A DNA stretch of 64,000 nt from a virus. Taxonomy: Duplodnaviria > Heunggongvirae > Uroviricota > Caudoviricetes. Shown piece after piece: positions 19,473 to 35,372 of the stretch (positions are counted from its first letter, which is position 1; each line of letters opens with the position of its first letter). The notes under the pieces are model-generated. The model searched no databases, was not told the origin of the DNA, and was given only the letters and a program-made list of their open reading frames with translations. The DNA lies in IMG/VR virus record IMGVR_UViG_3300027796_000011, positions 41,850 through 105,849 of that record; one strand, 5' to 3'. Made by a program: the position numbers and the translations under genes.

Positions 19473-19865
19473 TTAATTGTCTGCGTCGGTAAACGAAAAT
19501 GGCAGGCCACAAACCGTCTGGCCCGCACGAAACCCGGCATACAATCCAAGCGCCTGTAGCTGTTCCCGGATATGCCTCCCGATCAAGTCCGGGCGTTCTC
19601 GGCGTATCTGTGCGCCTACCTCGTCAAAAAATATCTTGCGCCCCTGGCCGTCATAGTAATAACCGCCCATTTTTTCCTCGCTTTTTTTAGGGTTGCGTTT
19701 CAAGCCGGGAACTGTTCCCGGCTTGTTTGCAATCCTTTGTCGGCTACTCTCGCCGGGCCTGTCCCGGCTAAGCTCTGGCCTGTCAATTTTCAGTGATCTT
19801 TGCGGGCCGCTTCCCCGCACGTCGTGATTATTTTCTAATCGCATTCTGGCCTTCCCGTCAAGCAT
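19473..19865 (-). CDS. hypothetical basic protein
   Basis: 130 aa ORF. Confidence 0.25.
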   Translation of the reverse strand: MLDGKARMRLENNHDVRGSGPQRSLKIDRPELSRDRPGESSRQRIANKPGTVPGLKRNPKKSEEKMGGYYYDGQGRKIFFDEVGAQIRRERPDLIGRHIREQLQALGLYAGFRAGQTVCGLPFSFTDADN

Positions 19866-19869
19866 TTTT

Positions 19870-20470
19870 TCTATCTTTTTTTGGCCCGCTCAAAAAATTG
19901 AAATCAATTTCAAAAAATGCCGTATGTAATGATCCGGGCGCGCGAAGAGCATTTTTCATGCCAAAAAATCTTGAAAAAGGCCATTTTTCCTTGTATTGCG
20001 CTAAAAATCTAAAAACGTATCCTTGCCTAGCAAAACATGCCCGGCGCGGCAAATCGCATTCTGGCGTGTTTCAGCCCTATATGCTTCGCATAGCATAACG
20101 AAAAAAACTGGAAAAAAGCTCGATAAAAAGATTTTTTTGGCATGGTTTTTGTCGTGGCATGAAATATGCTTGGCGTTTTTTCCTGCCAGATTTTTTTGCT
20201 TTTTTTTGCTTTTTTTCGCATTTTCTTGTGCTTTTCCTGGTTTTTGGCATGGAACGTGAATTGACAAAACTTTGACTATACTACCACGGCTTTTCTCGCA
20301 TATACTCTCGACATGACAAAAAAATGGCGCAGATTGCTTGCCTTATGCTTTCTTGGGCATATGCTTTCGCGGACATATGCTTGACCACGCCGATATGCTT
20401 TCTTGAACATATGCTAGCTCGGACATATGCTTTTTCTAACCTATGCTTTGTGGAGCATAACGCTGGCGGT
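19870..20470. other. candidate replication origin: AT-rich tract plus iterons
   Basis: poly-T tracts at 20150-20250; six spaced (A)CATATGCT iterons at 20338-20462; an outward-facing promoter TTGACAAAACTTTGACTATACT at 20261. Confidence 0.45.
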
Positions 20471-20572
20471 AGTCTGGTCTGGCGGGGCGGCGGCTAAGTT
20501 CCAGGTGGGGCAGCCTGCTTACCTGTTAGGTATTCTGTCTTAAATCCTTCCCCAAAAAATGCTACGTTGCAA

Positions 20573-20652
20573 GTTGCCGGTCCCCCCTACGTTGCGGGTT
20601 GCCGGTCCCTTTTCATTTCTTGACCTACGTTGCTTGTTGTCGTTCCCTTGGG
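20573..20652. repeat. three tandem CTACGTTGCnnGTTGCCGGTCCC direct repeats
   Basis: read directly; a second triple copy lies at 31490-31558. Confidence 0.8.
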
Positions 20653-20867
20653 TGCTTCCTGCCCGCTTCCTTGAGGTAGTGCTGATTGTTGTCAGGATGC
20701 CCTGTGCTGGACTTTCTTTTGATTCTTGGGGTTGGATACGGTCTGCTTGGTAGGCTGGCTTTAGAATGGCTTGTCTTTGGCTGGTTTTGAGTGTTCTTTG
20801 GCTGTTCGGGGTGGGTTCTTTTAGCCTAGTTCTGGTTGCTTTCCCACCCCGATTTTTTGGACTTCTG

Positions 20868-21101
20868 CTAGGCGTCGATGATCGTAAAAATATCCTCAAT
20901 CGGATCGCCTTCCATGTCAATGTCGGCACGACAATGCCTGCGGTTGCCCTCCCGCTCCATTGCTTTGAAAATCTCAAAATCCTCCCACGGAAGTACGCCT
21001 CCCCCAGAATCAGACATGGCATTGGGGGCTAACACGCTCCAAACGTCTTCAAACTGTTCACCTGAGTATCTGTCAACCCACTCCATTTGATATTTCGGCA
21101 T
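20868..21101 (-). CDS. small acidic protein, three-member paralog family (member 1)
   Basis: WVDRYSGEQFEDVW...LPWEDFEIFKAMEREG. Confidence 0.4.
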   Translation of the reverse strand: MPKYQMEWVDRYSGEQFEDVWSVLAPNAMSDSGGGVLPWEDFEIFKAMEREGNRRHCRADIDMEGDPIEDIFTIIDA

Positions 21102-21130
21102 GTGTTTCCTCCCCGATTTTTTGGGTTAGG

Positions 21131-21334
21131 CTAGTCTTTCAGAATGGTGTAAACATCCCCCTCGCACTCCCACTCTAAGAGGCCCTGAGACTTCATTTTT
21201 TCAAAAATCGCCACATCTCCTCCATGCATCGCGTGTTCATCCTCGCTGCATAACGTGTTAGGGGTAAGGTGGTCCCACAATCCCTCACAACGTCGGCCAG
21301 TAAAAACATCCATCCAACTGATCTTGTATAGCAT
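21131..21334 (-). CDS. small acidic protein, paralog family member 2
   Basis: WMDVFTGRRCEGLW...DVAIFEKMKSQG. Confidence 0.4.
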   Translation of the reverse strand: MLYKISWMDVFTGRRCEGLWDHLTPNTLCSEDEHAMHGGDVAIFEKMKSQGLLEWECEGDVYTILKD

Positions 21335-21363
21335 TTAGGATACCTCCCCGATTTTTGGTATGT

Positions 21364-21621
21364 TTAGATGTCCGATGGATCAGGCAGCGGAGGCTTCTGT
21401 GACACGATGTGGTTATGGTACAAAGCCCACCACTCTGCTAGCACGTTCTCGTGGGCCTTTGGCAGCCAGTCTCCCCCACAAGTAAAAACAGAAACGGCAA
21501 TAGCCGCAAACACCGCTTTCGGACACTGCTCGTAAAAAGATATCTGCCGACTGTACTCGTTTGTCACCTTCCCGGCCATAACCCCCCTTATTAAGCAGAA
21601 ATTTCGTATGTGTCTTCCCAC
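21364..21621 (-). CDS. hypothetical protein
   Basis: 85 aa ORF. Confidence 0.3.
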   Translation of the reverse strand: MGRHIRNFCLIRGVMAGKVTNEYSRQISFYEQCPKAVFAAIAVSVFTCGGDWLPKAHENVLAEWWALYHNHIVSQKPPLPDPSDI

Positions 21622-21851
21622 GCATCCCCGAAGTCACCCACCCCCCGCACAATCCGGGTACTCTCCCCCCGACGTTCCATGTCTTTGAACACCTTGAAGG
21701 CGTCAAACCCCATTATACAGTCGCTCTTCAAGTCCCTGGCCTCAATATCTAAGGTAGTCCACTTCAAGGTGTAGATATTCGTCCCCGGAGTTGCCATGTA
21801 CGTGTATGTGTAGAGCATACCCCCCCTTTGTTTTTTTGAAGTTGATTTCAA
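21591..21851 (-). CDS. small acidic protein, paralog family member 3
   Basis: GFDAFKVFKDMERRG. Confidence 0.35.
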   Translation of the reverse strand: MKSTSKKQRGGMLYTYTYMATPGTNIYTLKWTTLDIEARDLKSDCIMGFDAFKVFKDMERRGESTRIVRGVGDFGDAWEDTYEISA

Positions 21852-22087
21852 TCCCAGGCGTACTTGATGAAAAAAGTCTTACCCGGTTCGATGTTCTTTG
21901 TCAAGCCCATGTTTTCCATTTCTTGGAAAGTATCCGCTTCCGCCTTGGTCATGATAACACTCTTGTACATACCCTTCCGAAAATAGATAGGTACAGACAG
22001 GTATCCCTGCTTTGCCTCGTTCCAAGTGATCTCAAGGGCCTTGCCATCCCCCATACCTTCGCTGGCGTACTGTATCTTGTAGGTCAT
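21848..22087 (-). CDS. hypothetical protein
   Basis: starts MTYKIQY directly after the conserved leader and promoter at 22142. Confidence 0.4.
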   Translation of the reverse strand: MTYKIQYASEGMGDGKALEITWNEAKQGYLSVPIYFRKGMYKSVIMTKAEADTFQEMENMGLTKNIEPGKTFFIKYAWD

Positions 22088-22123
22088 GTGCTTTCCCTCC
22101 CGCTCGTTTGTTGAGTACAGACT

Positions 22124-22297
22124 ACCGCTTTCGGGCAGGTTTGTCAAGGTTTTTTATGACCAGTTTGGCCGCTTGCAGACGCTTCTCGTCTTCCTTGGTA
22201 TTCAACCACGGGCACATGTTCAACGCCTTGACCATATTCTTGAGTGCCCAAGCGGGCTGGTTCCCCACTATGCTTCTCGCTTCCTGTAATGTCATGA
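22124..22297 (-). CDS. hypothetical small protein (57 aa, absent from the ORF track)
   Basis: GGGAGGG RBS then ATG ACA TTA CAG...; [21 protein letters not shown]... Confidence 0.3.
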
Positions 22298-22518: not shown

Positions 22519-22593
22519 ATAGGCTCCCCCTCATTCATTGAAGACATTATGTGCTTTTTCTTGGAAAATGTCAAGAGGTTAATCTGGTAAAAT

Positions 22594-23184
22594 CTAGTAA
22601 GTGTCTTCCCTATCAAATTCTTCCAGCCCCGCCCGGAATGCCTCCCACTTGAAGTCCACAAAGGCATCCCGTAGCCGCTCGATATGGCATTGCATAAGCC
22701 GCTCGAAGTCATCCAACTGCTTCGCACAACGCTGCAATGCCTCTTTCTCTATGAACTTGCCTAAACTCGCGTGGAAGTGTTCAAGGACCGGGATAAAGTC
22801 AATCTCCTGCCCGTCAAATGTGAAAGCGATCCGCTTGTCAAGGCACCCATCACCATGTACCTCCACCCCGGGAGCCTTTTCCAAAGCAAGGTAAAACAAC
22901 GACTTGACGAGGGTCAAGGAGCTGTCTGTGTGTAGTTCTCGGATAGTCGTTTCTTTTTTCATGTGCATACCCCCGGCATACTCCCGATTTTTTGCTTCGG
23001 CGTATGTCATAGCCTTGTCAAAATAATTCTGACGCTTGGCACCTATCCTGCCGATCTTGCGAACCGTTCGGCTCCTGTCGTTGAACACGCACCAGTAATC
23101 CCCTATGCTGCCCACCCGGCACGGGCCTGTGGTGGTTGGCGAATGGACGGCACCGCAGTAGTGATTTTCGTAAGTGTCTGACAT
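22594..23184 (-). CDS. hypothetical protein
   Basis: GGGGGGTAGGAACC ATG; 196 aa. Confidence 0.4.
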   Translation of the reverse strand: MSDTYENHYCGAVHSPTTTGPCRVGSIGDYWCVFNDRSRTVRKIGRIGAKRQNYFDKAMTYAEAKNREYAGGMHMKKETTIRELHTDSSLTLVKSLFYLALEKAPGVEVHGDGCLDKRIAFTFDGQEIDFIPVLEHFHASLGKFIEKEALQRCAKQLDDFERLMQCHIERLRDAFVDFKWEAFRAGLEEFDREDTY

Positions 23185-23211
23185 GGTTCCTACCCCCCTC
23201 ATTTGTTTTGT

Positions 23212-23370
23212 CTATCTGTCCACAACGCCATTCACGTACTGGCGGGATGCCTTCAAAGACTTCGCAAGGACAGCCCCAAGTTCAGGGTGCTTGCGGACTG
23301 CCTGCCACCCATCACTGTCAACTAACTGGCGAATTTGTGCGGCCTGCTTTCTGGAAATAATGGCATTCAT
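23212..23370 (-). CDS. small hypothetical protein
   Basis: conserved leader then MNAIISRKQ. Confidence 0.35.
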   Translation of the reverse strand: MNAIISRKQAAQIRQLVDSDGWQAVRKHPELGAVLAKSLKASRQYVNGVVDR

Positions 23371-23443
23371 GTTCCTACCCCCCTCATTTGTTAGAAACAG
23401 TATGTGATTTTTCTTGGAAAATGTCAAGCGTATTTTTAATTTG

Positions 23444-23692
23444 CTATTTAATCCCTTCGCGGATTCGGTTGGCACACCACAACACACGATCAGGATGTAG
23501 CCCGCAACAATCTGAGCTAAGTTCTGGATTTACCACCATATCGTCAGCCACATCGGCAGCACCGGGAAGGACTCGCCCAAGTAGATGTAGATACCCGATT
23601 GCATTTGCCACCCTGTCCCCCCCATAAGCCGGGTGGCGTCCCTCGAAGATCGCTGCGGATTCTCTCAAGATGTCAACGGTAGTGCTGTTCAT
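23444..23692 (-). CDS. hypothetical protein
   Basis: 82 aa after the conserved leader. Confidence 0.35.
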   Translation of the reverse strand: MNSTTVDILRESAAIFEGRHPAYGGDRVANAIGYLHLLGRVLPGAADVADDMVVNPELSSDCCGLHPDRVLWCANRIREGIK

Positions 23693-23778
23693 GACTCCCC
23701 CTCATTCGTTGAAGACATTATGTGCTTTTTCTTGGAAAATGTCAAGCGTTATTTTTAACTTGCAACTTGATCCCCCCA

Positions 23779-24063
23779 TTACTTCCATGCGGCATACTTT
23801 GCCAGGAAGTCTAGACGTTCCTGTTCCTGCGTCAAGGCGTCTGTGAGTGGGATCAGGGACTCTTCTACCCGCGCAGCCCTCTCCCGGTCAAGAAAAAAAC
23901 CTACCGTCTGATCCGCATAGTCTGACCGCACATCGGTCACGCTTGTATAAGTGTACTGGCAATGCGGGCAGTAATCCCACCCCGCACCCTGGCCCCGGAG
24001 GTGCGAACAAAACTCACAAGCCGAAGACGCGCTTGAGATGGCAACTCTTTCCATTCTTTCCAT
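23779..24063 (-). CDS. hypothetical Cys-rich protein
   Basis: 94 aa; CEFCSH...CPHC. Confidence 0.35.
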   Translation of the reverse strand: MERMERVAISSASSACEFCSHLRGQGAGWDYCPHCQYTYTSVTDVRSDYADQTVGFFLDRERAARVEESLIPLTDALTQEQERLDFLAKYAAWK

Positions 24064-24142
24064 GTTCCTACCCCCCTCATTTGTTAGAAACAGTATAGAC
24101 CAAGAATCCCAGAAATGTCAAGTAGTTTTTTCGCAGTCAAAT

Positions 24143-24607
24143 TCAATTATTGACCCGGATCATGCGGTATTGCGGGTTGGTAGTCGTCTCCGTTCCAAAT
24201 TCCAGATACAGATGACGCTTACCCTTGCGATAGATGACCAAGTACACCGAATCCGAATACAGACCAAGTTCCTTGTGCTTGGCGGTCATCTTGGCCCCGC
24301 TGTACCATTCCACCCGCACCTCGTCCCCCTCCCGCAAAAGGGACAGGATAGACTCCGCATGATATGCCGTGCTGTACAAAGCCGTGTAATAACATCCGCT
24401 CAAGTCCTTTGCCCTGGCCGAATAGTTTGAAAAATACGCCTTTGTCTCAAAAGCGTAGGTGTACTCCCCGTTCTCCCGCACGATGTGAAACTCCCACTTG
24501 CAAGTACCCGCCCCTGGCTCAGACCGTAAAACCAGGGACTTGCTCAGATACTTTTCAGCCTTGAGGACGTACTTGATAGCCTTGATGTCTTCCTTGGTAA
24601 GTTCCAT
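24143..24607 (-). CDS. hypothetical protein
   Basis: 154 aa ORF with leader. Confidence 0.4.
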   Translation of the reverse strand: MELTKEDIKAIKYVLKAEKYLSKSLVLRSEPGAGTCKWEFHIVRENGEYTYAFETKAYFSNYSARAKDLSGCYYTALYSTAYHAESILSLLREGDEVRVEWYSGAKMTAKHKELGLYSDSVYLVIYRKGKRHLYLEFGTETTTNPQYRMIRVNN

Positions 24608-24955
24608 AGTGTTTCCCTCCCGATTTTTTAATAAAGGGCATCCAAAGGAAGAACGATCTCATTTCCTACGCAACGCTCATTTTCTGCCGCTTCCTTGGAT
24701 GGAAAAACCCGGATTCGATTCAATACTCTTGTATAAGAGTTTTTGCTTCCAGGCTTGGCAACGTATCCACCTTCGCCACCTGTCCTTTTCAAAATGAATC
24801 CATTTGATTGCATGTGTGTTTCCCTCCCCGATTTGTTGAGTAGAGTATGCGCTAAAAACCTGGAAATGTCAAGAGGTTTTTTGAAGTTAATGGCGAAAAA
24901 AAAGCGGGAAGGCTTGCACCTTCCCGCACTAACTATTCAGGATTCTTTGAGATGT

Positions 24956-25897
24956 TTAGATTTCAATCAGCCGGATCAGTTCCGCCTTGTCCGGGGTTGT
25001 GATCGTCACGACAAGGCCGCTCGTGTGCCGGTATTCAGTGTCCCCGTAGGCGTCCTCCCCACTTTCCAGGTTCAGCCACCCCAGAGTCACCGTGGCCTTG
25101 TCACCCAAAGCCTTGCGGGCCTCCCGCAACTTCTCAATTTCGGCCAGTTCGGGCTTGTCGCGCTCGTTCCATCCCGCAGCCTCCCCCTCCCGGATTCCGG
25201 CGGGAAGTTTGGCGTCCGCCAGCACATTCACGACGTATTCCTGACGGGCCAGGGCCTTCCAATCAAAGCCCTCTTCAAGTCTGGCAAGCAGCAACTCCGA
25301 TCCATGCGCCTTGGCCCACTTCTCCAAAGCCGCCTCACCTTCTGCCGCTTCCTGCCGCTTGCGGGCCTCGTACTCGTCCCGGCTCTTTTCCATGTCCTGC
25401 CGCTTCCGCAACTGTTCGGCTAACTCCGCTTCACGCTTGGCTTTCTTGGCCTCTCCCGCCTCTACCAGTTGCGCTTTGATGCTGTCAAACTCTTCCTCAA
25501 CCCACCGATAGCGGGCCTTCTCAAACTCCAAGGCGGCGGAAAAACTCTCAAAAGGTGCGTCAAACCCCTCTTTCATGACATAAGAGGCAAGGGATGGGTC
25601 GTCCTTATCATGTCCAATTATGCCGATGATCGGGGAGCCGTGCTTGACAATGTACAGGCTGTCGGTGCTGATGGTCTGAGTGCCCTCCCGCTCCCGGCGG
25701 ATGGACACCCCACCCCCCACAACCTGAGTCTGCAAAAGGGCCAGGGTCAGGCTGCCGTCCCGGTCAACCTTAAAAAAGTCAACGTCTTCCGGGGAAATCT
25801 CGCCGGTCAAGGTCTGCATGGCCTTGCCGTCCAGCCCGCGCTTCAAAGCCTCACGCTGCCCAGCCTCAGTCAGCTTGTAAGTGATCGTCGCCTTCAT
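24956..25897 (-). CDS. hypothetical coiled-coil protein
   Basis: GGGAGGGAACGAAAA ATG; central E/K/R-rich helix. Confidence 0.4.
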   Translation of the reverse strand: MKATITYKLTEAGQREALKRGLDGKAMQTLTGEISPEDVDFFKVDRDGSLTLALLQTQVVGGGVSIRREREGTQTISTDSLYIVKHGSPIIGIIGHDKDDPSLASYVMKEGFDAPFESFSAALEFEKARYRWVEEEFDSIKAQLVEAGEAKKAKREAELAEQLRKRQDMEKSRDEYEARKRQEAAEGEAALEKWAKAHGSELLLARLEEGFDWKALARQEYVVNVLADAKLPAGIREGEAAGWNERDKPELAEIEKLREARKALGDKATVTLGWLNLESGEDAYGDTEYRHTSGLVVTITTPDKAELIRLIEI

Positions 25898-26037
25898 TTT
25901 TCGTTCCCTCCCGCCCGGCCCCTGCCGGGGTTGTTGTTTCATGTCCCGCGCCATCCCCAGACGGGGCGGTGTTCCCCATTCCGTTGAGTAGGAGTCTACT
26001 CAATCCTTCCAGGTTTGTCAAGCGTTTTCTTGTTTTT

Positions 26038-26137
26038 TGGTGGAGGCAGCCGGACTCGAACCGGCATCTACCGGCCCCTTACAGGGGTGCCCGCGTCCGG
26101 GCGTCCATTGTCGTTCTACCGATTAAACTATGCCCCC
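26038..26137 (-). ncRNA. tRNA-like element with non-canonical anticodon region
   Basis: 7-bp acceptor stem GGGGGCA/TGCCTCC; D arm TAGTTTAATCGGTAGAAC; perfect T arm GCCGGTTCGAGTCCGGC; 3' ACCA; the 46-nt middle forms GCCCG-GACG-CGGGC and CCCCT-GTA-AGGGG hairpins but no 5-bp/7-nt anticodon arm. Confidence 0.5.
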
Positions 26138-26181
26138 ATGAAGTAGAAGAATACTCAATCCTTCCAGGTTTGTCAAGAGAT

Positions 26182-26457
26182 TTAATAATAAACCCCTAAA
26201 GCCCGGCACGCCAGGAAAGAAAAATCTGTGTTGTGCCCGATGTGCTTGACGGCCATAGCCTGTAACAAGGCACCCTCAATCGTAGTGCATCCGCAGTTCG
26301 TGTCCCGCCCCTCCACATACGGGTGAAATATCCGGTGGTCCTCCTTGTCAAGATGCTCCACGATGCTGTACGGCCCGACCTCGTGGACTTCCACCACAAC
26401 CCCCCACACAAAGTCTATCGTATTACCGTAAATCTGTGTCGGTCTACGCACTTTCAT
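26182..26457 (-). CDS. hypothetical protein
   Basis: 91 aa ORF downstream of the promoter at 26172. Confidence 0.3.
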   Translation of the reverse strand: MKVRRPTQIYGNTIDFVWGVVVEVHEVGPYSIVEHLDKEDHRIFHPYVEGRDTNCGCTTIEGALLQAMAVKHIGHNTDFSFLACRALGVYY

Positions 26458-26692
26458 ACTCCTTCACCATATCCACCGCTTGTTGAAGAAGACTCATGCC
26501 TTCTGGGGTGGGGGAGTCCACGCATAAATCCTCAGCCACAGCAATAACCTTTTTCAAGAGTACACGAAGTTTCTCAAAGTCCTCCCACTCCACATAGGTG
26601 CCATCGGCGTCAAGTTCCATGTCACAGCCGGGGCAGTCGTCGTCACTGAGCCACAACGCACTGGACTCAAGAGAGTACCGTTTTATGCTCAT
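26444..26692 (-). CDS. hypothetical acidic protein
   Basis: 82 aa ORF. Confidence 0.3.
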   Translation of the reverse strand: MSIKRYSLESSALWLSDDDCPGCDMELDADGTYVEWEDFEKLRVLLKKVIAVAEDLCVDSPTPEGMSLLQQAVDMVKEYESA

Positions 26693-26994
26693 GTAGCCAA
26701 CCCCTTTTTGAAGTGCTTTCTCACTGCGGCCTTGTATTCCGACGGCAACGGCATAACCGTTATAAGCACCTGCGCCAGACTGTAAATGTACACCATTTCC
26801 CCGTAAATCTTGATGTCTTTGGGCTTGGAGTGGTGCGCGGAAAACAGCGCATCGAAATACTTTTCAAGCCTCCCCGTTGCGTGTCTCCTTCCCATGCCCT
26901 TACTGTAGGCGATTGTTGCAGTCCTGTCAAGGGCTTTCTTTGGGAGTCCAACCCTCTCTTTTAAGCGTCTCGCTGCATGGTATGTGGTATGCAT
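26689..26994 (-). CDS. hypothetical protein
   Basis: 101 aa ORF. Confidence 0.3.
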   Translation of the reverse strand: MHTTYHAARRLKERVGLPKKALDRTATIAYSKGMGRRHATGRLEKYFDALFSAHHSKPKDIKIYGEMVYIYSLAQVLITVMPLPSEYKAAVRKHFKKGLAT

Positions 26995-27003
26995 GGCCTC
27001 CCC

Positions 27004-27615
27004 CTACATCCTGGCGAAGACTGCAACGTCTCCGTTATAAGTGCGTTCGGACCAATAGCTGTCAATAAACAGGTCACGGGCGTATGCGTCATAGTCGAAA
27101 TACGCTTGCAGATGTTCGGGGATGGAATCCAATTCCCCCATTTCGTCAAGCAGTTGCTCCGCAAATGCTGTTTCAGAATCAAAAGTGCCCTGGAAAGCAT
27201 CCTGAAAATCATCCAGGGTTGCATCCCCACCGTTGTCGTTTGCGTAAATGGCGTAAGCCTCCCCACCCTCTTCCAGAAGCCCATCCAGCTCGACAATCCT
27301 GTCCAGCGGGGTGTACTCCTCGACCAGCCCGTAAAATCCCTCTGAGTCATGAATGGCCCACTCCTCCGCAGACGGGAACGGGGAGGGCAAAGCACCGCCA
27401 CAATCCGGGCACCGCTCCCATTTGGCGTCCACATAAACGTCGCAGTCCTTGCAACGTCTACGCATGACATTGGGGTACTTGCTCATGGCAAGCAAGGCGT
27501 TAATCTGCGACTGAAGGCTTTCCGCACTCTCCCCGTCAACGTCGATCCATGTGCCCCGCGCTTCCCCGTTGTTGTAGTCGGCCAGGATGGACACATAGAT
27601 TTTTCTGTCGCTCAT
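27004..27615 (-). CDS. ardA: ArdA-family anti-restriction protein with inserted zinc ribbon
   Basis: IYVSILADYNNGEARGTWIDV, EWAIHDSEGFYG, IPEHLQAYFDYDAYARDLF align with Tn916 ArdA (VYIANLGKYNEGELVGAWF...EYAIHDYE...LQNYIDYQAYGRDL); highly acidic; CKDCD...CPDCGG insertion. Confidence 0.75.
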   Translation of the reverse strand: MSDRKIYVSILADYNNGEARGTWIDVDGESAESLQSQINALLAMSKYPNVMRRRCKDCDVYVDAKWERCPDCGGALPSPFPSAEEWAIHDSEGFYGLVEEYTPLDRIVELDGLLEEGGEAYAIYANDNGGDATLDDFQDAFQGTFDSETAFAEQLLDEMGELDSIPEHLQAYFDYDAYARDLFIDSYWSERTYNGDVAVFARM

Positions 27616-27703
27616 TTCGTTACCCTCCCGCTTGATTTGTTGAAGTCAGTATGTGCTATTTTCCAGGTTTTGTCAAGCACTTTTCCCATTGACTTCACTA
27701 TTT

Positions 27704-28015
27704 TCAGGAAGGCGACCAACCGTGCAGACAAAAGACCCTGAGAAGCGGGTTAACCCGCTGCAAAGTGCTGCGAATGTCGTTCGTTTTACTGTACCCGGAA
27801 CCCCCCAGACGGAAATGAAAAGCCGGATATTGGCTATGCTTACTGTAAATCTGATCGGGCAGCATTTCCTTAGACTTTTTGCCAAGGTCCGAATCCGACG
27901 GCCAGAGGATATTCAACCCCTCACCCTCGTCCAGGTACACGGCAAAGCGCGTGTTAGAAAGTTGAAGGATGTAAGCCCGCTTTGCGTCCTGAATTTGTTC
28001 CGCTTGTGCCTTCAT
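27704..28015 (-). CDS. hypothetical protein
   Basis: conserved leader then MKAQAEQIQ. Confidence 0.4.
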   Translation of the reverse strand: MKAQAEQIQDAKRAYILQLSNTRFAVYLDEGEGLNILWPSDSDLGKKSKEMLPDQIYSKHSQYPAFHFRLGGSGYSKTNDIRSTLQRVNPLLRVFCLHGWSPS

Positions 28016-28042
28016 GTGTGTTCCCTCCCGATTTGTTGAAGT

Positions 28043-28071
28043 CAGTATGTTCTTTTTCTGGGAAAATGTCA
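28043..28071 (-). promoter_or_regulatory. representative copy of the conserved promoter and leader cassette
   Basis: minus strand reads TTGACATTTTCCCAGAAAAAGAACATACT then GACTTCAACAAATCGGGAGGGAACACAC ATG; -35 hexamers of similar copies lie near 22142, 22569, 23422, 23740, 24116, 24866, 26016, 26172, 27671, 28836, 29387, 30577, 31066, 31313, 33046, 34317, 35268, 38878, 47155, 49124, 50692, 61099 and 62363. Confidence 0.6.
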
Positions 28072-28092
28072 AGCGGTTTTTCACATTGACTT

Positions 28093-28128
28093 CAAAAAAA
28101 CGGGGGGCTTTTACACCCCCCGCACATG
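28093..28128 (-). terminator. rho-independent terminator
   Basis: GCGGGGGGTGTAAAAGCCCCCCG hairpin + T7 on the minus strand. Confidence 0.5.
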
Positions 28129-28130
28129 TC

Positions 28131-28784
28131 TTAAATGTGGCAGTCAACCAGGGCCACAAGCTCATGCCCCTTGATCTCCTCCCAAAGCACCCGGAATTGG
28201 TCTTCCCACTCGCAAGGGCGTTTCTCCTCAGACACGCAAGCCCACCAGCCCATTTTGCCGCGCTCGTACCACACGCCGTCTTTCAGCACGGCAAACGTGG
28301 TTTCAACATCCCCGGCCTGATCCTTCCGGCAAATGTCCTTGCCGTCAAACATACCGCGCCACCGCCCGCCGATCTCCCACCAATCCCATTTGGCGTCGGG
28401 ATTCTCCCAATAGCCGTAGCGGCCCTTCTCCAGGTCGCGCCCATCGTATCCATACCAACCTTTGGCAAACTCCTCCAAAGTTTCGTACTGGTCCAGGTGC
28501 GGCACCTTAACCCTCTCGCTGTCTGCCGGGTACTCCTGGCGGGAAGACAGGTCTTTCTTGAAACGATCATCCCACCGATAGAACATACGCCCATCTTTGA
28601 GACGCACTTTCTCCACAGAGCCTTGCTGATACTCCGCGATGACGGACTCTTCCTTGTCGTGGAACTCTAAAAGTTCCTTCGGGAAGTCATCCTCCCCGCT
28701 GTACTCCTCAAACGGAGCCAGGGCCTTGGCGATGGACTCTTTTGTGCCGTCCTCAGTGACAACCAATACCGTAAAGTGTGACAT
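28131..28784 (-). CDS. hypothetical Trp-rich protein (WDWWEIGGRW motif)
   Basis: conserved leader then MSHFTVLVV; 217 aa. Confidence 0.4.
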   Translation of the reverse strand: MSHFTVLVVTEDGTKESIAKALAPFEEYSGEDDFPKELLEFHDKEESVIAEYQQGSVEKVRLKDGRMFYRWDDRFKKDLSSRQEYPADSERVKVPHLDQYETLEEFAKGWYGYDGRDLEKGRYGYWENPDAKWDWWEIGGRWRGMFDGKDICRKDQAGDVETTFAVLKDGVWYERGKMGWWACVSEEKRPCEWEDQFRVLWEEIKGHELVALVDCHI

Positions 28785-29087
28785 GTGTGTTCCCTCCCGA
28801 TTTGTTGAAGTCAGTATGTTCTTTTTCTGGGAAAATGTCAAGCACTATTTTGAAGTTAGTGTGAGAATTTCTGTCAGGGTCGCATGGATGGAGAACAGAC
28901 GTTCTTCCAAGCCCTCCCGCTCCGGGGCGGGGAGGCAACCCACTACCGCCCGGATATCCGCCAAATGACTTCTCATCTGGCAAGCGGATGACATGAGGGC
29001 CGAAAGCGTCTGAGCGTCCATGTCATTTTCCCGCCTCAATTCCTTTCAGAATGAGCCACCCTACGCATATTGCCCATAACACGAGGA

Positions 29088-29330
29088 CTACCATGCGCGG
29101 GCCTCCCGGTCACTGTCCTGCGGCAAATCCACCCCCATCAAAACATGATGGGAAGGAACGTCATGGGACACCTTGTAGTGCCTGCCGTACACGGGCCAGA
29201 AGCCGTAGTCGTCACAAAACTCCCGGCAATACTCCGGCAGGGACGCCTGGATTTCCTCCAGGCTGTCATACTGCATCAAAGTGGACCAGCTACCATCCGC
29301 CCGCTTTTCCTGAAAGCTGTATTCGTACAT
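29088..29330 (-). CDS. hypothetical protein
   Basis: conserved leader then MYEYSFQEK. Confidence 0.35.
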   Translation of the reverse strand: MYEYSFQEKRADGSWSTLMQYDSLEEIQASLPEYCREFCDDYGFWPVYGRHYKVSHDVPSHHVLMGVDLPQDSDREARAW

Positions 29331-29388
29331 GGTTCTTTTCCTCCCGCTCATTTGTTAGGTGCATCCTACCCGGTTTTTCCAGGTTTTG

Positions 29389-29742
29389 TCAAGAGGTTTT
29401 ATCCCCTAAATTAGACAAAACTTCGCGCAGTTGGGCAAAAGCCACTTTGCACAGGTCAAAGTGCGTCCCTAGGGACGCAAATGCGTGTTCGATGTACCAC
29501 GTATCGGAGCAGTCCGCACAAACCACATGCAGCGTTTCATACAATTCCCGGCACTGTGCATACCATGCCGCTGCCGCAGCCACACGACGAAGGCGGGCGA
29601 TCTCCAGGGAGGCATCCCCGTTGGTATCAATAGCCCCCCGAAGCCACTCACGTAATTCATGAACTTCCGCATTTTTGACATCCAAAGCCGTCCGAAGAAA
29701 CTCAACCTCCTGACCACAGCCGCACGACTCGCACATTGACAT
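29389..29742 (-). CDS. hypothetical Cys-rich protein
   Basis: MSMCESCGCG...; 117 aa. Confidence 0.3.
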   Translation of the reverse strand: MSMCESCGCGQEVEFLRTALDVKNAEVHELREWLRGAIDTNGDASLEIARLRRVAAAAAWYAQCRELYETLHVVCADCSDTWYIEHAFASLGTHFDLCKVAFAQLREVLSNLGDKTS

Positions 29743-29761
29743 GGTAGCCCCCACTGGTCGG

Positions 29762-30247
29762 TTAGTTCTTGATTTTCGGGACGGCCTTCACCTTCGCATA
29801 CAGGTCAGTTTCTTCCGCAACCAGCCCGGACTTCGAGACGATGGCCTTCGACAGAAAAGCCTCTGTCGCAGTCAGGCCGACCTTTACCAATTTGAAAAAG
29901 TCCTGCTCCCGATCCCGTTCCTTGAGCCACTGAAAGAAGCGTAGCGGGTCAATGTCCCTGGACTTTTTGCCTTCCCACACCAGCATGGAGGCTTCACCCT
30001 CAAGGCTGGTCGTCTCCAGGTCTTCTGCCACCCCGGCCAACTCTTCCTTCAAAGCCTTTTCCTCTGCTTTCGCAGCGGCCAGGGATTCCTTGAAAGCCTT
30101 TTCCTTGAGGTCGATTTCAGTCATCAAAGTCGCCAGCCGGTCAACCTTTTCGGCCAATTCGTTGCGCTGTTTGGGGATGGTAACAGACAGCCCCTTGATA
30201 GCAGACACCGTAGACGATTCGCGGATAAGTCTCATTCCAGTTTCCAT
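29762..30247 (-). CDS. coiled-coil protein (possibly Gp157-like)
   Basis: 161 aa, central KEKAFKESLAAAKAEEKALKEELAG coiled coil. Confidence 0.3.
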   Translation of the reverse strand: METGMRLIRESSTVSAIKGLSVTIPKQRNELAEKVDRLATLMTEIDLKEKAFKESLAAAKAEEKALKEELAGVAEDLETTSLEGEASMLVWEGKKSRDIDPLRFFQWLKERDREQDFFKLVKVGLTATEAFLSKAIVSKSGLVAEETDLYAKVKAVPKIKN

Positions 30248-30273
30248 AGCTCCCTCGTGTTCTTGTCTACACG

Positions 30274-30525
30274 TTAGGCAATGATTTCAGACACCCATTC
30301 AGGAATCCAACCCCACACCCCATCATCCTCAAGAATATCAAAATAGTCATGCCGCACAACATACGATACAGTAACAACAGTTCCCAGATAAGCAAACATG
30401 TCAGGGACGATGCTGTCCACCCACATGGGGTTGCACAGGGCACCCGCAAAATCAATCCCTGTGGACGCACTTGCCAACTCTTCCAGCGTCTTCAGACGCA
30501 CTTTCATCCCAGGCTTAATTTCCAT
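30274..30525 (-). CDS. N-domain-only member of the HRDIRLIR family
   Basis: MEIKPGMKVRLKTLEEL, YLGTVVTVS, WGWIPEWV; lacks the C-terminal HRD motif. Confidence 0.45.
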   Translation of the reverse strand: MEIKPGMKVRLKTLEELASASTGIDFAGALCNPMWVDSIVPDMFAYLGTVVTVSYVVRHDYFDILEDDGVWGWIPEWVSEIIA

Positions 30526-30601
30526 CGCTCCTCCCGCTCAATTTGTTGAGTAGATTATGGACGTTTTTCCAGGTTTTGTCAAGAGGTTTTTCCCATTGAC
30601 T

Positions 30602-30817
30602 TCAAAAAATAATGTCAGGGTGTAAACGGTAGACCTGTTTCCCAAGAAACACCCGCACATCCTGCGGGCTGGCCTTGCCCAAGAATTGCGCCAGCTTTTG
30701 CCGGGATGCCTTCCCGCCCGGCCTGACTTGAAAGTACCGCTGCGGGAGGGTCTTAGCCTCACCCCGGATGGTTAATTCCTCGTCCGTTTCCATATTGATG
30801 AAATTGATATTGGTCAT
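30602..30817 (-). CDS. hypothetical protein
   Basis: 72 aa starting MTNINFINME. Confidence 0.3.
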   Translation of the reverse strand: MTNINFINMETDEELTIRGEAKTLPQRYFQVRPGGKASRQKLAQFLGKASPQDVRVFLGKQVYRLHPDIIF

Positions 30818-31442
30818 TTTAGTCGTCCCCTCCAAGCAAGTCTAGACGCTCTTCAAGCGTGCGAATATAGCACGCCAAGTCTTCCCTGTCCATTTCAAGT
30901 TCTTCTATCCGGGCTTCCAGCTTGGCTATTTCGGAGTCTTTGAGGTCAAGCTCTACAGCAACGTCTTCCCAAAGCACCCACTCCCCATGCTTGTCAGCCT
31001 TCATCGTGTATCTGTCCATATGCCCCCCGATTTGTTGAGTAGAGTATGTGCTTTTTCTGGGAAAATGTCAAGCACTATTTTTCCAGTAATTTACCGCGCA
31101 ATCCTCCAAGTTCGCTAGGTACTCACTGTGCCTGTCGGCTGCGGCGTCACTCCAACCATCCCGCCATGCCACACGGTCCACGCTATCAATAGTATAAGGG
31201 CTAGCAGACTCTTCCCGTCCCTCCAGAAAGGCACTGTACCCCAGGTCGTATGCTTCCATGTGGTCCCTCCCGCTCATTTGTTAGGTGCATCCTACCCGAA
31301 AAATCTAGGGTTTGTCAAGAGGTTTTTTGAAGTCAATGGGAAAAAGCGGGGCGGGTGGGAAAACAGCCGAAGCCCCCAAAGCATCCTATAAGACACTATG
31401 AGGGCTTCTGGCTCAACTACCCGGCTATCTACCCGGCTTACT

Positions 31443-31558
31443 TCATGGGTCACTTAGGGGGTCACTTAGGGGGTCACTTGATGGGTCTACGTTGTAAGTC
31501 GTCGGTCCCCTACGTTGAACCTTGCCGTTCCCTACGTTGCAACCCGCCGTTCCCTCGA
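31443..31558. repeat. intergenic repeat cluster: 3x GGTCACTTAGGG followed by 3x CTACGTTGnAAnnnGnCGnTCCC
   Basis: read directly; same repeat family as 20573-20652. Confidence 0.8.
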
Positions 31559-32431
31559 CTACTTTGTTATGTCTCCCAGGCTCACCATCGGAGTAACATC
31601 CCCAGAGATTTTGGGGAGGATACCATCCCACTTCTCAACAGTCTTGTAGCGCACCAGTTCGGGAGTGAGAGACTTCGCCAGAATGAGGTTAGCCTCTGCC
31701 TGTGCCTTCGCCTTCAACGTGATGCTTTCGGCCTCTCCACGGGCCTTCTCAACACTCTTAGCTGCCTCCGCAGCAGCCTCCCGGCGTTCATTCTCACGCT
31801 GTTCAGCACGCTGCGTAGCCTCAATCTTAGCGTTGATACTGGCAATAACTTTTTCGGGGAGCCGGAAGTCCCCCACAAGATAAATGCGGTCAATCAGGAT
31901 GCCAATCGGGAGACATTGCTCACGAACCATATTCTCAACATCAGCCATCAATTTGGCCTTACCTTGCCCATACACATTAGCCACGGGCTGTGTTGACGAC
32001 AACGCCACCAAAGCATCCCGCACCATGTTACGGAGGTAGATGTCCGTGATCTCGTTCACACCCTTACGGTACTTCTGGAACAAGATATCAACCATTTCAG
32101 GCTTCACAGAAAAAGAGATTCCAAAATCACCGTTGACAGACAGCCCCTCGGATGTCTGAAAAGTGATGGATTCATCTTCAGGGCTTCCTTCCCGCTTATC
32201 AGCAGTCCAGACATAGTTCTGCGTAAAAACAGGGAACAAAAACAGATCGGTGTTCCACCCCAAGAAGTAGTATCCCGTGCCAACCTCTTCAGCGTCCACA
32301 CCCTTGTCACCACCAAGCAGATAGACCTTGACACCCTTGTAGCCAGCAGGGACTTTGGCGCAACCAAAACAACCCCCCGTGAAGGGCACCGACAGTAGCA
32401 GCAGAACAACCAGCAAGCGACTAATTTTCAC
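31559..32431 (-). CDS. SPFH/band-7 (stomatin/HflKC-like) lipoprotein
   Basis: signal peptide with lipobox FTGGC; SPFH domain; C-terminal A/E/K-rich coiled coil typical of band-7 proteins. Confidence 0.65.
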   Translation of the reverse strand: MKISRLLVVLLLLSVPFTGGCFGCAKVPAGYKGVKVYLLGGDKGVDAEEVGTGYYFLGWNTDLFLFPVFTQNYVWTADKREGSPEDESITFQTSEGLSVNGDFGISFSVKPEMVDILFQKYRKGVNEITDIYLRNMVRDALVALSSTQPVANVYGQGKAKLMADVENMVREQCLPIGILIDRIYLVGDFRLPEKVIASINAKIEATQRAEQRENERREAAAEAAKSVEKARGEAESITLKAKAQAEANLILAKSLTPELVRYKTVEKWDGILPKISGDVTPMVSLGDITK

Positions 32432-32440
32432 AAAGCCTCC

Positions 32441-32662
32441 CTACTTGTTAAAGTGTTTGTCCACAAGAGGCTTCCCTATCTTGCACTCCCACTTGTAGAT
32501 CAGATATACAATGACGGGCATCACTCCAGTGATGTACGCCCACCCGCCAAACACCGCGAAAGTGCTTTTGTAGGAGAACAAGAACGGAACAACAATCCCT
32601 ACAGAAAACCCTATAAAAGTCACTAAAAACACAAGACCCCAGAAACACAGCAGATACCGCAT
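32441..32662 (-). CDS. small two-TM membrane protein, partner of the SPFH protein
   Basis: GGAGG RBS; hydrophobic LLCFWGLVFLVTFIGFSVGIVVPFLF and FGGWAYITGVMPVIVYLI. Confidence 0.45.
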   Translation of the reverse strand: MRYLLCFWGLVFLVTFIGFSVGIVVPFLFSYKSTFAVFGGWAYITGVMPVIVYLIYKWECKIGKPLVDKHFNK

Positions 32663-32768
32663 ACTACACGCCTCCATTACCGAGGGGGTTATCCCAGAGG
32701 AACTCTCTAGAACATACCCCCCTATCAAGAGTTGAAGTTGATTTCAAAAATCTGGGTGAATACCCCCC

Positions 32769-32987
32769 CTAGTGACAAATACTATAACCCCGGCCAATCA
32801 TGCACTGCTGGCACAAATCCATCTGCGTGAACATGTTCCCCAAGGCACCCTGACCCGCTTGGGCCATACAAAAACTGTAATCCGCATTGAACTGCTGCGT
32901 GTTAAGTCCGGGCTTGCACCACTTACCAGCACAACCAGCCATCCCCAAAACAAGAACCAACAAAGTCACACAACCAAAACGCTTCAT
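32769..32987 (-). CDS. small Cys-rich secreted lipoprotein
   Basis: signal peptide MKRFGCVTLLVLVLGMAGC (lipobox LGMAGC). Confidence 0.45.
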   Translation of the reverse strand: MKRFGCVTLLVLVLGMAGCAGKWCKPGLNTQQFNADYSFCMAQAGQGALGNMFTQMDLCQQCMIGRGYSICH

Positions 32988-33522
32988 TCTCTTGTCCTCC
33001 CTAACCTTGATTTGTTAGGGACAGTATGCACACTTTTCTAGGATTTGTCAAGAGGTTTTTCAAGAGATTCAAGTTCCTCAAATAACTCAAAAAGTGCGTT
33101 CCACATCAGATCAGTATGCAAGGCACTAGCACGTTCGTAGGGGTCGGCGTGCATAGTCAGCAGTTCATCCTGCCCATCGAACGTATTCCTGATGTCGCAG
33201 ATGCCCTGATACATGGTATGCCAGACATTCTGGCAGAACTCCGAATAGTCGTAGTTCTTCTTGGCTCTCAAAGCCAGAGAAAGAATCCTTGACAATCGCT
33301 CATAGTTAAAGACAAGAGCCACTAGGCGTCCCCCCCGCTCACTTCCACAGTCTCTCTGTAAAGGGCTTTCAGATTGTCACGAAGATGCACCGACCTTCCC
33401 ACCACATCGGCCAAGATGTTCAGGGTCTTTAGCACGTTGCCCTTGTTGAAGTAATAATGTGCAGCATTGGCGTCCTTAATCAAAGACTGAAACTCTTTCG
33501 TAACCGTTTCCACAATGACCTC

Positions 33523-34260
33523 CTAGATTGTGACCCACCAGCCCGTTCTGCCGGGGATGGAAAGGCCGATATACGTTGTATCCTTAATGGTCCTCTTAAC
33601 ATACCTGTGCCAGTGCCCAAAAAGACTCAAAGCGGGCCGGTACTCCTCAATAAGAGACTGCAAAGCCTTTGTAGATGGATCGTTCCTATCCTTCTGTCGC
33701 ATCTCCATCATGGTATCCACCATGCACTCCGGGCAAGTATGACTGATAAGTATGTCATACGTCTGATGCTTTACTGCATCTAAGTCCTCTTGAGAAATGA
33801 TCTCCTCCTTCGAGAACCAATCCCACCCATCAACACGCTGACGGAAATCAACAGAACTAGCTCCCCCCATAAAAAGGGCGCGACGGCCATCAGGAAGTTC
33901 ATAGTAGCTCCCACGGGGCATGTAATAGATGTTTTCTGCTACCTCTATGGGAACCCTCCCCCCCGCCTTATCCACCAGTTCTCTAAGCATGTGATGTTGG
34001 CAATGATTGCCGTCACAGAACAGAATCTTGGTCTTTTGAGGTTTGATAGCATGGAGATACGTCAGTACATCTCCCCGCTCCAACACCCCACTATTCTTCT
34101 CGAAGTTAGTACGGAGTACCCTCCCCCCGTCCCTGGAACCCTGCACCAGAGGCCAGTATCCCATATCCCCACACACAATGCAGATTTCGGGCTGCTTCTT
34201 GGCGAGGATGCTGTTTAACTCCCCGAACTCCCCATGCTGATCCCCACACACCAGTATCAT
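33523..34260 (-). CDS. calcineurin-like metallophosphoesterase
   Basis: ILVCGDQHGE (GDxHG), CIVCGDMGYW (GDxxD), CDGNHCQHH (GNHE-like), GHWH. Confidence 0.65.
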   Translation of the reverse strand: MILVCGDQHGEFGELNSILAKKQPEICIVCGDMGYWPLVQGSRDGGRVLRTNFEKNSGVLERGDVLTYLHAIKPQKTKILFCDGNHCQHHMLRELVDKAGGRVPIEVAENIYYMPRGSYYELPDGRRALFMGGASSVDFRQRVDGWDWFSKEEIISQEDLDAVKHQTYDILISHTCPECMVDTMMEMRQKDRNDPSTKALQSLIEEYRPALSLFGHWHRYVKRTIKDTTYIGLSIPGRTGWWVTI

Positions 34261-34927
34261 CTGGAATCCTCCCCGCTCGATTTGTTACAAACATCTTACC
34301 CAATTTTTCTAGGCATTGTCAAGAGGAATTTCGCAGTCAACTTCAAAATTTTCGGGGTCGGTTAACTCTTCCCGCAGAAGTTCTCTCACTTTAGTCCTTT
34401 CTGCCTGATGGTACATCTGCCGATCCTTCCCGCTCTTGGGGCCGCAACACCGGCACTTCCATCTGTACCAACTCATGGCGTCCAGCCCCAAACGCTTATC
34501 AACCTTATCCGTCTTCGCAGACGACTGCATACTGCCCCCCCCTAGTTAGTCAGGAAGAGGGAGGCAAACTCCTCCCAGAACTCATCCTCTTCCAGTTCGT
34601 ACCTACGTTGCTTCTTGCCGTTCCCATGTACCTTCGTCAGATACCTGGAGTCCTTGGGCATTGCATCCCGCCGTGCTTCTCTGTAAGCCCTGCGGGTTGC
34701 CTCCCCCACATCAATCTTCTGGCACTTCATATCGCTCCCCCTCCAACTCGTTACGGTATCTCTCAATACACCCATCTAGAGTGGTATCCCCATGCTTCTT
34801 CCAATACTCATACAAAAGCAAGTTCAACTCTTTTGACATCTTCTCAACTGCGTCAGGAAAAGTTGCACGGCTTCGGATACGCATTACAAGCCTCAAACAC
34901 TTATGCAAAAACAAGTCAACATCTGGA

Positions 34928-35212: not shown

Positions 35213-35372
35213 CTCAAGCTCCTTTCGGCAGTTGGTATGAAGACACTATAGGTACTTATCTAGGTTTTGTCAAGACTTATTTTTTAGAAATTGCCTGTAC
35301 TCCCACTCCTCCATCAAAAGCCCATACGCAGCCACCACAAAAGACACCAGCAACAAAGGCCATGCAACATAG

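Follow-up and report, generated by a model that had tools for sequence, protein, structure and literature searches.

A putative protein-docking repeat array beside DNA predicted to be curved, in an orphan phage's main noncoding region

What does a noncoding gap of 1197 bp do in a phage genome that is otherwise tightly packed with genes? The question is raised by a 64,000-nucleotide stretch of IMG/VR virus record IMGVR_UViG_3300027796_000011 (positions 41,850 to 105,849), hereafter the window, which covers about 60% of the ~106-kb genome of an uncultured tailed phage. The gap, at 19671-20867, is the largest noncoding one in the window. It carries head-to-tail repeats with the core TATGCT, which a preliminary description of the locus had taken for the iterons of a candidate replication origin. 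The array is genuine and highly non-random, and the DNA beside it, in what is the chief noncoding region of this orphan phage, is predicted to be curved. It is very probably a docking array for a sequence-specific DNA-binding protein. As such it is a new sequence but an ordinary kind of feature, a predicted protein-binding repeat array in a phage noncoding region. Several readings compete for what the occupied array would do. Our best guess, and a tentative one, is a protein-bound element that marks a transcription boundary or otherwise controls transcription. A replication origin is one of three comparably likely readings and not the leading one.

Three metagenome contigs, from JGI 3300027719 (105,969 bp), JGI 3300004151 and the Logan assembly of SRR10466901, are 100% identical to the window in all overlaps. 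Flanks taken from these same-phage contigs bring the assembled sequence to 83 kb of ~106 kb, and positions past the window are given below as w coordinates. The gap is identical in the three independent samples, which leaves no variation for analysis.

The gap is bounded by two minus-strand genes, at 19473-19670 (65 aa, with a GAGGA ribosome-binding site) and 20868-21101 (77 aa). The preliminary description had called the region noncoding. This holds for a larger interval than was stated, and codon usage separates the gap from its neighbours. All 17 flanking small genes have codon-usage log-odds of +0.06 to +0.43 bits per codon, whereas nine open reading frames (ORFs) inside the gap score between -0.21 and +0.08. 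Frame analysis and codon usage together led us to reject coding potential for these ORFs, including an 88-aa ORF at 20001-20267 proposed by a metagenome gene caller.

The array proves to be more regular than first reported. Six repeats spaced 17-20 bp apart had been described; the repeats are real, but there are seven, and their TATGCT cores (20344-20447) start at 20344, 20360, 20376, 20394, 20410, 20426 and 20442, giving spacings of 16, 16, 18, 16, 16 and 16 bp. Tandem Repeats Finder (TRF) reports a period of 16 and 6.5 copies. The unit is about 14 bp long with a consensus of about GRACATATGCTTTC. Four of the seven units contain exact CATATGCT, three of them in the form ACATATGCT. The core is identical in all seven units and the spacers have diverged, a pattern that argues for selection on a binding site and not for recent slippage. 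Seven copies in 104 nt make this the densest 6-mer cluster in the window, while 30 random Markov sequences reach only 3-4 copies per 110 nt. The TATGCT motif is not enriched at other intergenic regions. A 16-bp period corresponds to 1.5 helical turns, so neighbouring sites lie on opposite faces of the helix.

The same half-site is used elsewhere in the gap in ways that the preliminary description had missed. An inverted copy caps the array, a second 21-nt module with the same arrangement lies at 20080-20100, and a solitary site (at 20165) falls between the two modules. These elements and the other features of the gap are collected in Table 1.

Table 1. Features of the noncoding gap and its edges (window coordinates)
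Feature	Position	Strand	Basis or remarks
Noncoding gap	19671-20867		ORF reading; codon usage; 6 of the 28 tandem-repeat rows of the window lie inside
Seven head-to-tail units, consensus (G)RACATATGCTTTC	20341-20456	+	Invariant TATGCT core; 16-bp period with one 18-bp step
Inverted-repeat module TATGCT-ttgtgg-AGCATAACG, caps array	20442-20462		Repeat family D8; inverted AGCATA at 20454-20459
Second module TATGCT-tcgcat-AGCATAACG	20080-20100		Same orientation, 362 bp left of the capping module; 21 nt, 81% identical (D8)
Solitary site GAAATATGCTTG, between both modules	20162-20173	+	Repeat family D6
Phased A/T tracts	19865-20250		21 A or T runs of at least 5 nt; predicted intrinsically curved
Degenerate copy of promoter/5' untranslated region cassette, TTGACAAAAC then TATACT at +10 and +34 nt	20261-20330	+	Shine-Dalgarno sequence lost; aligned to six intact cassettes
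Weak sigma-70-like element TTGACG-N18-TAGAAA with upstream A-run	19832-19861	-	Sequence reading; fails the T-at-position-6 rule of the scan
C/A-rich, G/U-poor untranslated stretch, rut-like	20660-20860	-	Shortly after the stop codon of gene 20868-21101
23-nt repeat, three copies, plus strand CTACGTTGYnnnnTGYCGKTCCC	20562-20647	-	One repeat family with the copies at 31487-31554 and 34603-34625; zero chance matches expected
GC-rich hairpin (GGGGTGGG...CCCACCCC)	20806-20864		Fold -25.6 kcal/mol, z -3.4; repeat family D16
Phage-wide palindrome TTGAAGTnnACTTCAAAAAA, here as TTGAAATCAATTTCAAAAAA	19897-19919		Repeat family D5; 12 copies in window
Structured leader of the 65-aa gene	19692-19840	-	Fold -55.3 kcal/mol, z -4.3; includes 11-bp-stem hairpin 19701-19725

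Left of the array the gap is dominated by A/T tracts. The interval 19851-20350 holds 21 A or T runs of at least 5 nt, and no other 500-nt window has more than nine. The T-tract string quoted in the preliminary description is present at 20192-20228, within this exceptional cluster. TRF identifies a 10-nt tandem, TTTTTTTGCT, in 4.3 copies at 20191-20235 and an 11-nt tandem in 2.8 copies at 20099-20130. By a wedge model, 20066-20192 is the second most curved 126-bp segment in the window, and the other highly curved segments are promoter-bearing intergenic regions. The same DNA lies outside the eight least stable duplex segments at window sizes of 40, 60, 100 and 150 bp, and it ranks fourth for low GC content at 300 nt. 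Strong predicted curvature without exceptional instability suggests that the A/T tracts behave as bent DNA and are not an obvious unwinding element. The preliminary description had read them as a DNA-unwinding element; A/T tracts with 10-11-nt tandem units are there, but the region is not among the segments of the window that melt most easily.

The reading that we tentatively prefer assigns the locus to transcription. A putative, probably phage-encoded protein would bind along the seven 16-bp-spaced sites, head-to-tail because the site is asymmetric, and would occupy the two TATGCT-N6-AGCATAACG modules in dimeric form. The shared half-site of these modules is as expected of dimer-bound operators. 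Because the modules bracket about 360 bp of curved A/T-tract DNA, looping between them is possible. The array would both mark and regulate the point where the promoter-rich early region gives way to the ten small genes that end the leftward block (19670-16480). Transcripts arriving from the right would leave the last translated gene at 20868 and then cross the C-rich, G-poor untranslated stretch, where Rho-dependent termination would be expected. The bound array, together with the curved DNA, could then set downstream expression by activation, repression or a roadblock.

Evidence for such a boundary comes from the distribution of promoters. All 16 of the strong minus-strand promoters (at least 10/12) in the 16-32-kb region lie at 22546-31318, and the promoter scan finds none between 16000 and 22500. 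The stereotyped promoter is therefore missing from the ten genes to the left of the gap, from 19670 to 16480. These genes would have to rely on read-through of 1.2 kb of untranslated RNA or on the weak promoter-like elements of the gap, among which the sigma-70-like element at 19832-19861 is the only cassette-like promoter that faces them.

The composition of the right part of the gap also fits a place where transcription could end. We take rut (Rho utilization) sites to be untranslated stretches of at least 80 nt that are C-rich, G-poor and weakly structured and that follow a stop codon. Judged by composition and position, 20721-20820 is a candidate rut site of this kind. It has the most extreme C-over-G bias in the 48-kb leftward block (skew 0.48, against a block mean of -0.16 and a standard deviation of 0.15), with 37 C and 13 G on the minus strand. 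The 300 nt at 20561-20860 are the most A-poor of the window on the plus strand, and hence the most U-poor on the minus strand. Intrinsic terminators are absent from the minus strand of the gap, according to a terminator scan.

The 23-nt repeat that adjoins the C-rich stretch recurs three times in tandem at 31487-31554, 10.9 kb from the gap copies, and once at 34603-34625. All seven copies (7/7) share one orientation. The copies at 20.6 kb fall in different reading frames, which makes the repeat an element at the nucleic-acid level. At 31.3-31.56 kb the order is stop codon, 23-nt repeats, C-rich 12-nt repeats, terminator-like hairpin and promoter, and this arrangement ties the repeat family to transcription-unit boundaries. 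It is this transcriptional context, consisting of the promoter distribution, the rut-like stretch, the association of curvature with promoter regions and the repeats at 31.5 kb, that places a control element slightly above an origin in our ranking.

A number of observations nevertheless count against a control element. Seven tandem operators exceed what most known repressors and activators use. The array is not overlapped by a canonical promoter. The candidates closest to it are an extended -10-like TGGTAGTAT on the minus strand at 20278-20286 and the TTGACG-N18-TAGAAA element; both are weak, and the latter lies about 480-580 bp from the array. No DNA-binding protein is found within 10 kb; the 65-aa product of the first downstream gene has a low-confidence structure model without a fold match. 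No relatives of the region exist in any collection searched, and an origin would account just as well for iterons on both sides of A/T-rich DNA.

In the origin reading, the iterons, all seven, and the inverted-repeat modules would be occupied by an initiator that melts the A/T-tract DNA between them. Its gene would lie elsewhere; one candidate is the orphan 394-aa or 293-aa gene just upstream of the DnaB-like helicase gene. The origin reading is possible, although we doubt it. Plasmids of the pSC101, F and pPS10 type combine iterons with an inverted-repeat operator, and in SaPI origins iterons flank an AT-rich segment. The gap resembles the iteron origins of plasmids, phages and phage satellites in its tandem array with a conserved core and diverged spacers, in an inverted repeat made from the same half-site, in two sets of sites that bracket A/T-rich DNA holding 10-11-nt T/A-rich tandem units, and in its place in a noncoding region with several repeats, which in such origins can be some genes away from the initiator gene. 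It also differs from them. Classical iterons are 17-22-bp units phased at about 21-23 bp, or about two helical turns, whereas the ~14-bp units here recur every 16 bp on opposite faces. The A/T region stands out for its predicted curvature and not for instability, and blastn against plasmids finds no match for the window. The gap contains no DnaA boxes, no IHF sites and two GATC sites (four matches on both strands) against 5.5 expected. No replication-related or DNA-binding domain is detected by Pfam or PHROG within 10 kb on either side, in agreement with the preliminary statement that no initiator gene is nearby, and the DnaB, primase and helicase genes lie at w~66-73.7 kb, about 45 kb from the array. 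The adjacent 'promoter' is defective, as described below. Cumulative GC skew, which the preliminary description had named as a check on its origin, falls steadily from 16 to 64 kb without an inflection at 20 kb and reaches its minimum elsewhere, at w=65638 in the 83 of ~106 kb assembled, at a divergent junction beside the replication genes. By the preliminary description's own standard such a minimum would refute the origin, but the evidence is weak, because skew in phages follows transcription and gene orientation. The repeats and the A/T-rich DNA agree with iteron architecture; the skew, stability, DnaA, IHF and GATC content, initiator, promoter and phasing are each neutral or against an origin. 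TATGCT does not cluster near the replication genes, which also counts against an origin; that no competing iteron-like array was found in or near those genes counts for it. There is also a precedent in the PLE satellite: RepA binds its origin within a noncoding region of multiple repeats, and repA itself is several genes away (PMC7145576). If the gap were an origin, an initiator would act far from its own gene in a virulent phage lineage whose candidate initiators are all orphans.

The gap could instead be a DNA-entry, terminus or packaging signal, that is, a genome end or terminal-repeat boundary hidden by a circular-looking assembly. We regard this as unlikely. The phage is a large siphovirus of ~106 kb whose assemblies look circular or permuted, and the genes on both sides of the gap are co-oriented, as at a collapsed junction of the T7 type; in T7, repeat arrays adjoin the terminal repeat. 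The closest parallel is T5, whose terminal repeat contains three repeat regions that are untranslated; the third is 1.2 kb long and combines the injection stop signal with nine copies of a direct repeat (10.1101/866236). The untranslated region here is likewise about 1.2 kb long, lies in the early small-gene part of a siphovirus genome of more than 100 kb and is packed with families of repeats, both direct and inverted, and of palindromes. One family is found again 10.9 kb away, in another noncoding region, much as T5 repeat regions 2 and 3 share an element (10.1101/866236; T5 annotation). The parallel is one of layout and not of sequence, since blastn in near and distant modes matches the window to no deposited phage, T5 included, and no homologues of T5 marker genes were noticed. 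The DnaA-box pairs that T5 carries in inverted repeats are absent, and the nine T5 D repeats follow one another at irregular distances (25-81 bp among copies 1-6), unlike the strict 16-bp tandem found here. Terminase and portal genes are not identified in the 83 kb, 1-9 kb is where the genes for protease, capsid and tail are found, and one short assembly contig spans the gap unbroken. The mechanism of untranslated repeat regions of the T5 style has stayed unsettled many decades after their discovery, and a transcription boundary or entry checkpoint at this gap would be a second, unrelated example. A composite control centre is a more elaborate version that we consider quite unlikely. Here an orphan protein would polymerise on the opposite-face 16-bp array and bridge to the second module over curved DNA, in an unconventional nucleoprotein role such as an origin 45 kb from an orphan initiator or a T5-like entry/transcription checkpoint that holds until early proteins are made; the 23-nt repeats at 20.6 and 31.5 kb would bound an early segment of about 11 kb. 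Improbable, in our view, is action at the RNA level, with the repeats serving in the leftward early mRNA, or in a plus-strand antisense RNA that ends at the hairpin and T6 of 20806-20860, for instance as processing sites or as sites that bind, or form a sponge for, an RNA-binding protein. With no intrinsic terminator on the minus strand, a read-through RNA would hold all repeat families in one orientation, and the 23-nt repeats have a single orientation in 7/7 copies at gene 3' ends. The minus-strand array folds better than its shuffles (z -3.2), but this is expected of any tandem CAUAUG palindrome array, and the plus strand gives z -0.8. The 23-nt repeats lack a structure signal (z -0.45 and +0.10), a functional promoter that could drive a plus-strand RNA was not found, and there is no Rfam family match even at relaxed thresholds. 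An asymmetric conserved core with inverted-repeat modules suits recognition of duplex DNA better. Decay offers an equally improbable account, in which lost gene cassettes and slippage repeats would leave a remnant with no present function. The broken promoter cassette speaks for decay, as does a ribosome-binding-site relic that lacks a start codon and is followed by a 105-codon open but non-coding-like frame. An invariant TATGCT in 7/7 units with diverged spacers is the opposite of recent slippage, however, and the half-site is reused in two modules 362 bp apart, in a sequence that is the same in three independent samples and in a genome that is elsewhere compact. Whatever probability these five readings (control element, origin, entry or terminus signal, RNA element and remnant) leave over goes to other explanations.

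The preferred reading, a protein-bound control element, can be compared with several kinds of known DNA-binding arrays. P2 Cox, 186 Apl, ribbon-helix-helix proteins such as omega, and ParR and TubR are cooperative or filament-forming binders of short direct-repeat arrays. Their sites are phased at about 7-12 bp and either overlap known promoters or adjoin partition ATPase or GTPase genes. The array here shares with them the arrangement of five to ten short asymmetric sites head-to-tail, DNA bending and a position at a transcription-unit boundary. It differs in its 16-bp period, in having no overlapping promoter and in the lack of a recognised partner gene. For a partition centromere (parC, parS or tubC), the array is present but no ParA, ParM, TubZ or ParB-like match occurs in the window proteins scanned. 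The stoperators of mycobacteriophage L5 are asymmetric repressor sites that block elongation in one orientation and are dispersed singly over the genome. As in L5, the site here is asymmetric, has one orientation relative to transcription and is intergenic within a transcription unit. In contrast to L5, seven sites are concentrated in one place and other intergenic regions are not enriched for the motif. Whatever its function, the motif GRACATATGCTTTC at a 16-bp period provides a ready bait for finding a new DNA-binding protein.

A middle promoter of the T4 MotA type was considered and rejected. The MotA box, (a/t)(a/t)(a/t)TGCTT(t/c)A, lies 12±1 bp upstream of a TAnnnT -10 element. TGCTT is present in six of the seven units, but the next TAnnnT starts 7 bp past the box and the proteins scanned include no MotA or AsiA match. 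A sigma-54 promoter was likewise set aside. TGGCATGGTTTTTGT at 20138-20152 fits TGGCAYG-N4-TTGY, and such sigma-54-like sequences occur three times in the window against 0.15 expected. The other two copies, plus-strand matches to TGGCACGG-N3-TTG(C/T) at 16415 and 16443, lie in the convergent terminator region, and no enhancer-binding protein was seen. Partial resemblances to a lambda CII-like TTGC-N6-TTGC, to a Gram-positive LexA half-site (GAACATATG) and to a boxA-like UGCUUUC were dropped by eye as coincidences. No Chi sites occur in the G/T-rich strand.

The preliminary description had also placed an outward-facing promoter at 20261. The TTGACA hexamer is present (20261-20266), but the TATACT hexamers at 20277-20282 and 20301-20306 leave spacers of 10 and 34 nt. 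Sigma-70 promoters were defined here by -35 and -10 hexamers 17±1 bp apart, and sigma-70 scans call nothing at this place. The sequence fits the intact promoter cassettes of this phage only with an indel and is a disrupted copy of them.

These cassettes are units of about 80 nt with a promoter and leader (A-run, cTTGACAAAACCTGGAAAAA..CATAMT..CAACAAATCGGGGAGG) that are repeated about 20 times, usually ahead of one or a few small genes. They occur through 22524-38909 and at other places, for example 9991-10022, 11339-11367, 24844-24872, 30554-30582 and 62340-62368. Copies resemble one another so closely that short-read assemblies break at them; two ends of Logan contigs, at 15355 and 22567, lie within copies. 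Cassettes also make up a 57-nt inverted repeat (98%) at 15328-15384/24823-24879 and a 62-nt direct repeat (100%) at 28013-28074/28782-28843, inside which one metagenome contig ends at 28072.

Read from right to left, as in minus-strand transcription, the gap runs from the stop codon at 20868 through the leader relic and hairpin, the C-rich stretch, the 23-nt repeats, the TATGCT array, the broken cassette, the A/T tracts with the second inverted-repeat module inside them, the palindrome and the weak promoter element to the structured leader of the 65-aa gene. On the plus strand, the hairpin at 20806-20864 is followed by T6 and resembles a terminator at the right edge of the gap. On the minus strand, frame analysis identifies the same bases as a relic of the standard AAAAAATCGGGG(A)GG leader and ribosome-binding site without a start codon. 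At the left edge, the leader hairpin with its flanks (19690-19745) has a plus-strand fold of -30.7 kcal/mol (z -6.0). The palindrome TTGAAGTnnACTTCAAAAAA has at least 12 copies, at 9956, 12060, 19897, 24880, 28079, 32731, 41817, 46154, 50758, 51469, 59246 and 61032. Copies sit just upstream of a -35 element or just upstream of ribosome-binding sites, and the palindrome could be an operator or an UP-like element.

The second repeat-rich noncoding region, at 31300-31558, lies directly after the stop codon of an SPFH/Band-7 gene. It comprises three 22-23-nt CTACGTTG...TCCC repeats, 3.4 copies of GGGTCACTTAAG and two of AGCCGGGTAG, followed by a T-run hairpin and a promoter. The solitary 23-nt repeat copy in 34540-34660 is inside a possible 39-codon ORF (MPKDSRYLTKVHGNGKKQRRYELEEDEFWEEFASLFLTN). 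Another junction, the divergent one at w~64.7-65.8 kb, is about 1.1 kb long and lies just past the end of the window, beside the replication module and at the skew minimum. A questionable ORF of 167 aa lies in it, together with an inverted repeat whose arms are 39 nt long, a palindrome with 15-nt arms and an 11-nt A-rich tandem, and by position alone this junction is the best alternative location for an origin.

The AlphaFold model of the 65-aa protein (pLDDT 58) has a strand-helix-helix layout, and neither a Foldseek fold match nor a PDB sequence match was found for it. It had been considered as a candidate ribbon-helix-helix protein. Just upstream of the gap, the minus-strand genes at 20868-22147 encode small acidic proteins of 67-99 aa that are alike by eye (for example 77-aa MPKYQMEWVDRYSGEQFEDVW... 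and 67-aa MLYKISWMDVFTGRRCEGLW...) and, from their sequences, appear paralogous. For the 77-aa protein (20868-21101), a search of 5.8 billion proteins gave no homologue from any source but this phage. The proteins that flank the gap, and the 394-aa candidate initiator as well, match only themselves among 5.8 billion sequences.

Searches at the DNA level gave a similar picture. Pattern scans for the array recovered only unrelated loci in IMG/VR and, among the matches listed, in JGI metagenomes, and a scan for the promoter palindrome also found unrelated loci only, with checks by BLAST. Protein-based IMG/VR scans for relatives returned nothing. One distant relative, with a tail tube that is 76% identical, surfaced, and it covers the structural genes only. 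The tail-tube protein of the window is about 41% identical to siphovirus tail tubes from phages of Pseudomonas, Xanthomonas and Vibrio.

The genome is laid out in blocks. Structural genes, among them those for the capsid, tail tube and prohead protease (1-9 kb), occupy the minus strand at 1-9.9 kb, and PhoH and other genes occupy the plus strand at 10-16.2 kb. The minus-strand block from 16.3 to 64 kb contains many small genes without annotated function and ArdA, followed by nucleotide-metabolism genes and a gene for a sigma-70 region-4 protein. The replication module begins on the plus strand at w~65.77 kb with the orphan 394-aa and 293-aa proteins, a DnaB-type helicase, a Toprim primase and a ResIII helicase. 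The sigma-70 region-4 protein has 273 aa and is encoded at 55750-56571 on the minus strand (Pfam E 1e-4; PHROG 'RNA polymerase sigma factor' E 2e-6), and through it the phage may redirect transcription, although no promoter consensus to match it was identified.

At its gathering score, Rfam 15 reports one match in the whole window, a tRNA of 97 nt at 26041-26137 on the minus strand (48.6 bits), and it gives only sub-threshold, chance-level matches in 19500-21000. ARAGORN reports no tRNA at 26041-26137, and the molecule may carry an insertion or a long arm. Promoters of nearly identical sequence lie on either side of it, at 25993-26021 and 26148-26176. The junction at 16174-16480, where the plus and minus blocks converge, contains a palindrome with a 22-bp stem (CTATTGCCGATATATCGTGA...TCACGATATATCGGCAATAG) and three CTAGGCTTTATT repeats. 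Among the structural genes, an HNH-endonuclease ORF between the capsid and tail-tube genes includes a 45-nt tandem duplication (2.1 copies, 98%) at 2303-2397.

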